A stretch of DNA of 58,445 bases, taken from UHGV virus genome UHGV-0021275; one strand, given 5' to 3'. The notes beneath the pieces were generated by a model that saw only the letters and a list, made by a program, of their open reading frames with translations, was not told the origin of the DNA and made no database searches. The position numbers and the translations under genes were made by a program. Every line of letters begins with the position of its first letter. Positions within the stretch are counted from its first letter, which is position 1. This DNA comes from a virus. This document shows, in pieces, positions 29,997 to 30,273 of this stretch.

Positions 29997-30273
29997 GATA
30001 AAAATCCTCAGTGTGATATGAGTTAAAGAATTGGTTTAAGGAAGGATGCCACCGCCCACCCCTGCCGATTATTAGCCGGACCGCAGTCGCCCGGTGTTGT
30101 TATCCCGTTTACTAACACTGACCACATGTTAGCGGTATGCACCCGCGCACAGACGCATACCGCCAGCATGTCCCACCGCCACCCCCGCCGATTGTTTTAC
30201 TTCGTCGCAGTCACGAAGTGGCTACACACAGGATAGGAAATCTGTCACGCGCTCAATCGCACGCTGACGCGGT

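Follow-up and report, generated by a model that had tools for sequence, protein, structure and literature searches.

What is the function of the 277-nt gap at positions 29997–30273 of the virus genome UHGV-0021275, a stretch of 58,445 nt that was analysed whole and is called the window here? The gap separates two minus-strand open reading frames (ORFs), 30795→30274 (173 aa) and 29996→29496 (166 aa), and an initial annotation had described it as non-coding DNA with two direct repeats, which might be protein-binding sites or an internal promoter or attenuator. We find that the gap carries two repeat units, each a small hairpin followed by a G-rich box, on either side of a long hairpin (HP2). This module is conserved, its hairpins covary and do so with a strand asymmetry, and its units are confined to a single hotspot where they flank inserted gene cassettes. 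We consider it quite probable that the gap is a selected element that folds on the sense strand.

Two Repeat Units Flank a Long Hairpin

The repeat CCACCGCC(C)ACCCCYGCCGATT matches the plus strand at 30049–30070 and 30173–30193 and nowhere else in the 58 kb (0.00 matches expected from 100 shuffles). Its 18-nt core, searched with up to three mismatches, returned the same two matches only in the window (0.09 expected), and a repeat finder aligned 30056–30073 with 30179–30196 at 89% identity and a spacing of 123 nt. The two direct repeats of the initial annotation are therefore real, with exactly two copies and none elsewhere in the window. The hairpin reported behind the second copy is also present (acttcgt-cgcagtc-acgaagt, 30199–30219), but the first copy had been missed as preceding one too (30076–30094, plus strand); its loop, cgcagtc, is identical and its stem wholly unrelated. 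The full repeat unit, box and hairpin together, measures ~46–48 nt. Between the two copies lies an inverted repeat with 17-nt arms (30124–30171) that had gone unmentioned. The neighbouring genes lie on the minus strand, which also gives the best reading of the element, opposite to the direction in which it had first been read.

We gathered relatives by protein-anchored look-ups, which yielded ~25 loci on 58–63-kb contigs from E. coli draft assemblies and metagenomes (numbered L005–L010 and L257–L278). The comparison with homologous regions, proposed in the initial annotation as a check, shows the module kept at the same place, upstream of a gene of 166/177 aa, in all relatives. On the transcribed strand, the gap is organised as follows:

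30220–30273, minus strand: variable 5′ part of the gap, 91.8% identical with indels in L007 and L008, against 99.5–100% for the core
30199–30219, minus strand: hairpin of unit B, ACUUCGU-GACUGCG-ACGAAGU, 7-bp stem and 7-nt loop, from sequence and covariation
30191–30198, minus strand: A-rich linker of unit B, AAAACAAU, from aligned units
30172–30190, minus strand: G box B, CGGCGGGGGUGGCGGUGGG, from conservation of its G runs; predicted two-layer G-quadruplex (G4)
30124–30171, minus strand: long hairpin HP2, ~21 bp interrupted by one C·A mismatch, rich in G·U at the top and capped by a tetraloop of UNCG type (UGCG)
30111–30133, minus strand: small hairpin HP2b, whose 5′ arm is the 3′ arm of HP2, hence alternative pairings
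30095–30106, minus strand: CA-rich linker, GGGAUAACAACA, near-invariant among relatives
30076–30094, minus strand: hairpin of unit A, CCGGGC-GACUGCG-GUCCGG, 6-bp stem with one G·U, loop as in unit B
30068–30075, minus strand: A-rich linker of unit A, CUAAUAAU, from aligned units
30049–30067, minus strand: G box A, CGGCAGGGGUGGGCGGUGG, from conservation of its G runs; predicted two-layer G4
30011–30048, minus strand: G-free C/U-rich tract of 38 nt (CAUCCUUCC...), between G box A and the ribosome-binding site, holding an anti-Shine-Dalgarno-like AUCCUU
30009→30005 and 29996→29994, minus strand: Shine-Dalgarno GAGGA and start codon of the 166-aa gene, which is always downstream of the module

Units A and B, which flank HP2, are each built of a hairpin, a linker and a box. 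The hairpin has 6–7 bp, with a loop that is always GACYGCG and a stem that differs between units; the linker is short and A-rich; and the G-tract box has the consensus CGGCRGGGGYGG(G)NGGYGG.

Is the gap truly non-coding? In most relatives the upstream ORF is 21 nt longer (180 aa against 173 aa in the window, with the same terminal sequence): a CAA codon has become TAA at 30274–30276 of the window, and 30253–30273 is coding in relatives. Because the upstream ORF extends 21 nt further there, the conserved non-coding part amounts to ~256 nt. Within it, a sense-strand ORF of 48 aa (30169→30023) is open in the window, and a frame of 43–48 aa is open in the window clade, L009 and L010, without a conserved AUG. 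As a protein, however, this ORF is not conserved: the whole L257 clade lacks it, L009 has a frameshift in it and in L258 it is broken; the conserved G box lies in different reading frames in the window and in L010, and changes within the clade are mostly non-synonymous. The repeats are thus not degenerate coding sequence. A small protein made from this frame, or else a replication or priming signal (a single-strand initiation site, or an R-loop origin on the G-rich non-template strand), is a very improbable explanation of the gap. Hairpins and G-rich tracts on one strand would suit priming, but a far better origin candidate lies at 33.7–34.4 kb. This non-coding region of ~1 kb (33700–34400), in which numerous iterons (TGAGCA/TGCTCA) accompany ~45 nt of pure A/T near 34000–34045, looks like a replication origin or partition site.

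The Hairpins Are Conserved as Paired Structures on the Sense Strand

The 185-nt core of the gap (30040–30224) is 99.5–100% identical to L007 and L008, against 86–98% for the flanking ORFs. It is 92.4% identical to L009 (ORFs 83–92%), and in the distant L010 its identity is about equal to that of coding DNA. Members of the L257 clade carry a decayed copy of the 3′ end of the upstream gene between unit B and HP2, with ~25% of its columns variable, against ~4% in the units, HP2 and the neighbouring gene. Because this pseudogene remnant varies far more, we conclude that purifying selection acts on the modules and not on the intervening spacer. The CA-rich linker is likewise kept in every relative, including those whose neighbouring gene has only 60% protein identity, except for GGGA/GGGG in L009. 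The initial idea of an element separating gene blocks therefore holds good, as one that is functional, selected and non-coding.

Selection on structure is apparent from the pattern of changes. Across 16 distinct unit variants the unit hairpin is 93.6% paired, and five of its seven pairs have changed on both sides; its closing pair is U-A, U·G or C-G in different lineages, and controls slid along the alignment were at most 59% paired. HP2 behaves similarly: over nine distinct sequences it is 97.4% paired, with compensatory changes at 7 of its 21 pairs, and slid controls did not exceed 52%. Close to its top, three G·U pairs are unchanged in all HP2 sequences compared, and in the L257 clade its stem is shorter, ~16–17 bp. 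With an RNA fold of −29.9 kcal/mol (z = −4.23), HP2 is the only thermodynamically unusual part of the gap. The inner four pairs of HP2b are formed in 100% of sequences and three of them covary; this hairpin competes with the base of HP2 and is absent from the minimum-energy fold.

Which strand folds? Read on the sense strand, the unit-hairpin pairs comprise 58 Watson-Crick, 6 G·U and 2 mismatched pairs, against 58 Watson-Crick, 1 G·U and 7 mismatched pairs on the antisense strand, and the wider set of unit variants adds further sense-strand G·U pairs. Since the stems change with pairing kept and G·U pairs are seen in the sense only, we infer that a single strand of the polarity of the genes is folded. 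That strand is most likely RNA, which is the simplest reading because the module sits within a transcription unit.

Other pairings were considered and discarded: (i) an extended helix of G box A with hairpin A, proposed by RNAalifold, shows only G-C to G-U changes (the small hairpin is the truly compensatory one); (ii) kissing of the unit loops with the loops of HP2 or HP2b is broken in L009, L010 and L257; and (iii) a closing helix of the 5′ flank with the G box is impossible in L257-B and L258-B2.

These patterns bear directly on the proposal that the direct repeats are sites in double-stranded DNA for a regulator, or that the early genes are split there by an internal promoter or attenuator; we now regard it as unlikely. 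Two near-identical ~20-bp G/C-rich boxes lie 123 bp apart between gene blocks, and the box bases, mostly Gs, are kept irrespective of context, as expected of a sequence-specific site. Recognition of a duplex, however, predicts neither arm changes that preserve pairing nor strand-specific G·U pairs, and the spacing between hairpin and box varies from 1 to 9 nt among unit variants, the linker staying A-rich throughout. The hairpin part of the unit is thus poorly explained as a protein-binding site on DNA; the G-rich box alone could still be one.

The Gap Has No Sigma-70-Like Promoter or Intrinsic Terminator and Lies Downstream of a boxA

The promoter or attenuator half of that proposal is not supported. 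No sigma-70-like promoter is present in 29997–30273 on either strand, and the aligned relatives share no conserved −35/−10 pair there. Nor does either strand hold an intrinsic terminator, as no U run follows any hairpin of the gap and A-rich sequence follows the unit hairpins. Units also occur at the 3′ ends of cassettes, even upstream of a cassette with its own promoter, a further point against the proposal. The nearest good promoter is 3.2 kb upstream: a likely early promoter, TTGACA-17-TTTAAT (33519→33491, minus strand), which is the only near-consensus sigma-70 promoter in the window. It is followed after ~50 nt by a perfect rrn-type boxA, GCUCUUUAACAA (33442→33431, minus strand), and also by a hairpin. 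A search for boxA as GCTCTTTAACAA, with up to one mismatch, found 33431–33442 as its sole match in the window and none in the gap.

From this arrangement, the leftward early operon would seem to be subject as a whole to Nus-factor antitermination. Under such antitermination, RNA polymerase that has passed boxA should read through untranslated, structured RNA. Because the modified polymerase should read through the gap, an attenuator role is disfavoured and a co- or post-transcriptional module fits. Attenuation by a leader peptide was rejected on other grounds, as the AUG is unconserved and the ORF absent or frameshifted in several clades, although alternative pairing of HP2 and HP2b does exist.

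Could the gap encode a known RNA? Rfam 15 gave no match at gathering thresholds in the gap or in six relatives, and at E≤10 it gave chance-level matches only (16–19 bits, against gathering scores of 45–100). The families covered include PreQ1, CRISPR direct repeats and known sRNAs. In the window as a whole, ARAGORN found no tRNA or tmRNA gene. A CRISPR repeat or RNA anti-CRISPR was rejected, as loop and stem differ, the spacing is wrong and there is no Rfam match. The sole above-threshold Rfam match in the window lies elsewhere, at 7595–7680 on the minus strand (AgrB, 48.1 bits, E = 4.8e-5). AgrB is the antisense RNA of the dinQ type I toxin locus (RF02891).

We also considered that HP2, with or without HP2b, might be a small stable trans-acting RNA cut out at the flanking units, for example an immunity or anti-toxin RNA like P4 CI or P1 c4. 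Direct repeats surround a very stable, covarying hairpin, and many of the genes nearby have toxin-antitoxin or antirestriction functions. HP2 does not stay complementary to the repeats across clades, however, so antisense immunity of the P4/P1 type was rejected; with neither promoter nor terminator of its own nor an Rfam match, a trans-acting RNA appears quite improbable.

The divergent control region holds several copies of the palindrome TGCGCA(A/T)TGCGCA between 34200 and 34800 (for example at 34206–34224 and near 34300–34330, 34660–34730 and 34775), which look like operators.

The G Boxes Are Precisely Conserved

Among ten unit variants, 11 of the 13 G positions of the box are invariant, and most changes fall on single bases between the G runs (T/C, C/A/T, G/A); the wider set adds one G-to-A variant (L275-B1). 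Only three segments of the window are dense in G runs, and two of them are G boxes A and B. Both boxes have at least four GG runs and loops of 1–2 nt, the runs being kept and the loops variable, and could accordingly be modelled as two-layer G4s. ViennaRNA with quadruplex energies, a generous model, predicts two-layer G4s in both boxes and recovers both small hairpins (−92.5 against −72.9 kcal/mol). Minimal two-layer G4 motifs are not enriched genome-wide. A second possibility is a small pseudoknot: all 16 units allow a 4-bp pairing of the loop (CYGC) with the box (GCRG), with U·G, C-G or U-A and never C·A, but none of them shows double compensation and the pairing is not statistically significant.

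The boxes are also strongly Shine-Dalgarno-like, yet no conserved start codon lies behind them. Might the module instead regulate translation of the 166-aa gene? In such a switch, G box A would fold as a G4 or pseudoknot, or pair with the C/U-rich tract, which would otherwise sequester GAGGA. The segment from HP2 through unit A always directly precedes this gene, even where the genes upstream differ (L010, L257); the AUCCUU of the G-free tract is complementary to GAGGAU, with which it pairs in RNAfold; and the quadruplex fold and loop-box pairing just described also count in its favour. The composition of the tract is kept in the window clade, in L010 (with two Gs) and in L257, but not in L009, where a G-containing 40-nt insertion interrupts it. 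Unit B moreover has the same box and no gene start behind it. Given also the uncompensated pseudoknot pairing, the lack of G4 enrichment and the generosity of the G4 energies, we find a switch doubtful.

Several known motifs were considered and rejected. The RfaH ops element GGCGGTAG resembles GGCGGTGG in G box B, but its essential T is C in L009, L010 and L257. Chi, GCTGGTGG, was rejected for two mismatches; a lambda cos-like site, GGGCGGCG, because the element is not at contig ends; Xer/dif for a poor match by eye; and a sigma-54 promoter because its elements are wrongly spaced and unit A lacks it. In L010, the most divergent relative, G box B pairs with a downstream C-rich complement (GGCGGGGGUGGGUGUGCACCGCCCGC, then UUUG; 2251–2285) in a terminator-like hairpin that is a one-off.

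The Units Mark One Hotspot of Cassette Insertion

Where else do the units occur? Scanned with a covariance model of the unit, the window yields just its two copies, at 74.6 and 60.9 bits, the next match reaching 12 bits. Every relative has two copies, or three where there is a cassette, and without exception these are on the sense strand and within one hotspot. This hotspot is the interval from the 173/180-aa gene to the 166/177-aa gene, next to ArdA, and it has received the following:

L258 2590–3170 and L275 2090–2670: mazE-pemK cassette
Seven loci, for example L260 828–1350: phd-parE cassette
Four loci: phd alone
L010 1668–2238: antitoxin gene fragments

A B-type unit follows each cassette (mazE-pemK, phd-parE and the antitoxin fragments). 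In L258 and L275 the mazEF cassette, which has its own promoter (TTGACA-17-TATTGT), is bracketed by two B-type units, both ending CGGCGGGGGTGGCGGTGGGA (L275-B1 has one mismatch); the stretch that the two share in L275 continues through CATG to ~24 nt. The second unit of these two loci (B2) has a different stem and a GACCGCG loop. One crossover joining a circular cassette to the resident G box would be expected to give this arrangement. The only matches of the mazEF cassette in E. coli genomes (~67–70% identity) cover query positions 75–622, and the unit begins at ~655; because the matches stop short of it, the E. coli homologues of the cassette lack the unit.

Are the units then recombination sites in their own right? 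A structure- and strand-specific site marking the 3′ ends of mobile cassettes, attC-like and served by a dedicated recombinase, would explain why one unit stands after each inserted cassette, why the hairpin is kept over the stem sequence with a strand-specific signal, and why unit B2 behind mazEF has a foreign-looking stem, which suggests arrival with the cassette; a protein with an Arm-DNA-binding domain is also encoded nearby in some relatives. No integrase or HUH enzyme, however, is conserved beside the units, none is encoded in this region of the window, and the units occupy one hotspot per genome only. Ordinary homologous recombination over the ~24-nt G box explains the junctions equally well, and we judge a dedicated site quite unlikely.

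Just upstream of the hotspot, at 30851–31699 on the minus strand, lies a gene for a YdcK-type beta-solenoid repeat protein (282 aa). Its length differs greatly among relatives, some of which have another protein in its place, in one instance of 231 aa and with an Arm-DNA-binding domain.

The Module Belongs to a Lineage Recorded in Draft Assemblies and Metagenomes

The protein clusters of the element are recorded on hundreds of contigs from E. coli draft assemblies and metagenomes. Searches of other collections were negative: the window has no nucleotide match in INPHARED phages, PLSDB plasmids or 5,426 complete E. coli genomes; the 200-nt core has no blastn match in the same genomes at E≤1; and the 166-aa protein has no tblastn match in phages (its predicted structure has a pLDDT of 40.7, too low to use). 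In IMG/VR we found no relative, as protein searches and DNA patterns gave only coding or chance matches; loop-plus-box matches there scored at most 20 bits with the unit model, against 53–75 bits for intact units and 24 bits for a copy in L010 degraded by deletion. The 17-mer ACACCGGGCGACTGCGG gave only chance matches in GC-rich genomes when searched in genome and metagenome contigs.

The family-A DNA polymerase of the window shares only 25–27% identity with its counterparts in KPP25/phiR18-like Pseudomonas phages and in Rhizobium phages. Joined end to end, the window gives an in-frame ORF of ~2,300 aa (56488–58445 + 1–4963, plus strand), so the contig is circular or permuted; the C-terminal 1,653 aa of the protein (window 2–4963) have no sequence match in the PDB and match one PHROG of unknown function. 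Recurrence on draft contigs, the lack of matches in collections, a ParB-like gene and the toxin-antitoxin cassettes together hint at an uncultured phage-plasmid or carrier-state phage.

A Proposed Punctuation Module in a Probably Antiterminated Transcript

What, then, does the module do? We tentatively favour the view, which we hold as quite possible though still short of probable, that the gap is a cis-acting structured RNA punctuation module in a boxA-antiterminated early transcript, whose biochemical role, as we infer it, would be in processing, stability or insulation, and whose G boxes would double as recombination joints for cassettes. A long early transcript most likely starts at the 33.5-kb promoter and is made termination-resistant by the rrn-type boxA. 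HP2 may be a processing site: RNase III substrates are at least 20 bp long (~two turns), and in the window HP2 has 21 supported pairs and one mismatch. The hairpin and G-tract units, possibly as two-layer G4s or small pseudoknots, would act as barriers or insulators, protecting the upstream cassette message where they stand at cassette 3′ ends and, in front of the 166-aa gene, defining its 5′ context. As DNA, the G boxes, identical over ~24 nt, may provide the short homology for gain and loss of the mazEF and phd-parE cassettes.

Several observations weigh against such a folded RNA module. The units alone have a folding z of about 0 against shuffled sequence, and the whole gap one of −0.67. 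The covariation of the unit hairpin was matched by 0 of 500 shuffles, but such counts are not probabilities, since much of the covariation stems from the contrast between A and B paralogues and from related sequences. Single-stranded DNA hairpins tolerant of G·T would yield an identical pattern. The units are confined to one locus, whereas a signal for punctuation in general should occur at further intergenic sites. Finally, the precise conservation of the G boxes is accounted for only by the G4 or protein-binding ideas.

A rather unlikely variant would make the hairpin and G-tract unit an undescribed cassette-end element, a strand-specific signal folded as RNA or DNA (a small pseudoknot or two-layer G4), which would tag the 3′ ends of mobile toxin-antitoxin or anti-defence cassettes in a widespread, uncultured E. 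coli phage or phage-plasmid lineage. It would then be more than passive homology: a recombinase, or a factor of RNA processing or defence, would actively recognise it.

How does a punctuation module compare with known systems? The closest are the PeSLs (promoter-early stem-loops) of T4-type phages, in which regulatory stem-loop cassettes recur beside ORFans and bring about their shuffling (PMC2839356). Like them (PMC2839356, PMC4122927), the units are short repeated intergenic stem-loop motifs that flank cassettes in a hyperplastic early accessory region, where the gain and loss of cassettes is explained by short homology shared among copies; what is seen in L258 and L275 fits insertion of a mini-circle at one repeat. 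The units flank mazEF in L258 and L275 and follow phd-parE in L260 and others and the antitoxin fragments in L010. PeSLs, however, have a consensus sigma-70 promoter and a terminator stem-loop, and the units of the gap have neither. The units also differ in their conserved loop with variable stems, their G-tract box, the separate long hairpin and their single locus per genome, PeSLs being found at many. The module may thus be regarded as a functional analogue of the PeSLs, and not as a member of the family, because the defining promoter and terminator are absent.

Hairpins processed by RNase III are familiar from phage early transcripts, as at the T7 R sites, which have characteristic internal loops, and at the lambda sib retroregulator. 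HP2 resembles them as a long (~21-bp) intercistronic hairpin in an early polycistronic transcript made by the host RNA polymerase, with an upstream promoter coupled, as in lambda, to an antitermination signal, boxA. It differs in having no sequence similarity to them, a nearly continuous stem, a UNCG tetraloop and a competing hairpin, and its cleavage is putative. In E. coli, REP/BIME elements are extragenic hairpins that recur behind genes; they can make the mRNA upstream of them more stable and serve as recombination substrates. The units share the repetition and the position behind genes, but they have no similarity to complete E. coli genomes, conserve the loop and not the stem, and carry an attached G-tract box.

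Integron attC sites, too, are structure-kept, sequence-variable and strand-specific hairpins at cassette 3′ ends. The stems of the units are much shorter, however; the R/L core boxes (GTTRRRY) of attC are absent from the unit sequences, and no integrase, of integrons or otherwise, was found among the neighbouring proteins scanned. The lambda-type nut site, boxA plus boxB, is not reproduced, as no boxA stands beside the hairpins of the gap. With preQ1-I-like H-type pseudoknots there is a resemblance only, in the 5–7-bp hairpin, the A-rich tail and the possible 4-bp pairing of the loop to a Shine-Dalgarno-like segment; no Rfam match appears at E≤10, most units have no gene start behind them, and covariation of the second helix is not significant.

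We rate the module among the intergenic structured repeats that punctuate and shuffle the accessory genes of phages. It would be of local interest only if it were a passive recombination scar or an ordinary untranslated region. If the favoured view is true, it is a new covariation-supported RNA motif, absent from Rfam, in the anti-restriction and toxin-antitoxin early region of an E. coli phage lineage. G-quadruplex-prone RNA is generally reported to be depleted in bacteria, and the module may offer a test case for a role of conserved G-tracts in a coliphage. It may likewise serve as a test case for how long antiterminated early transcripts are punctuated, and for the way in which short structured repeats direct where accessory cassettes are gained and lost in phages beyond the T4 family.

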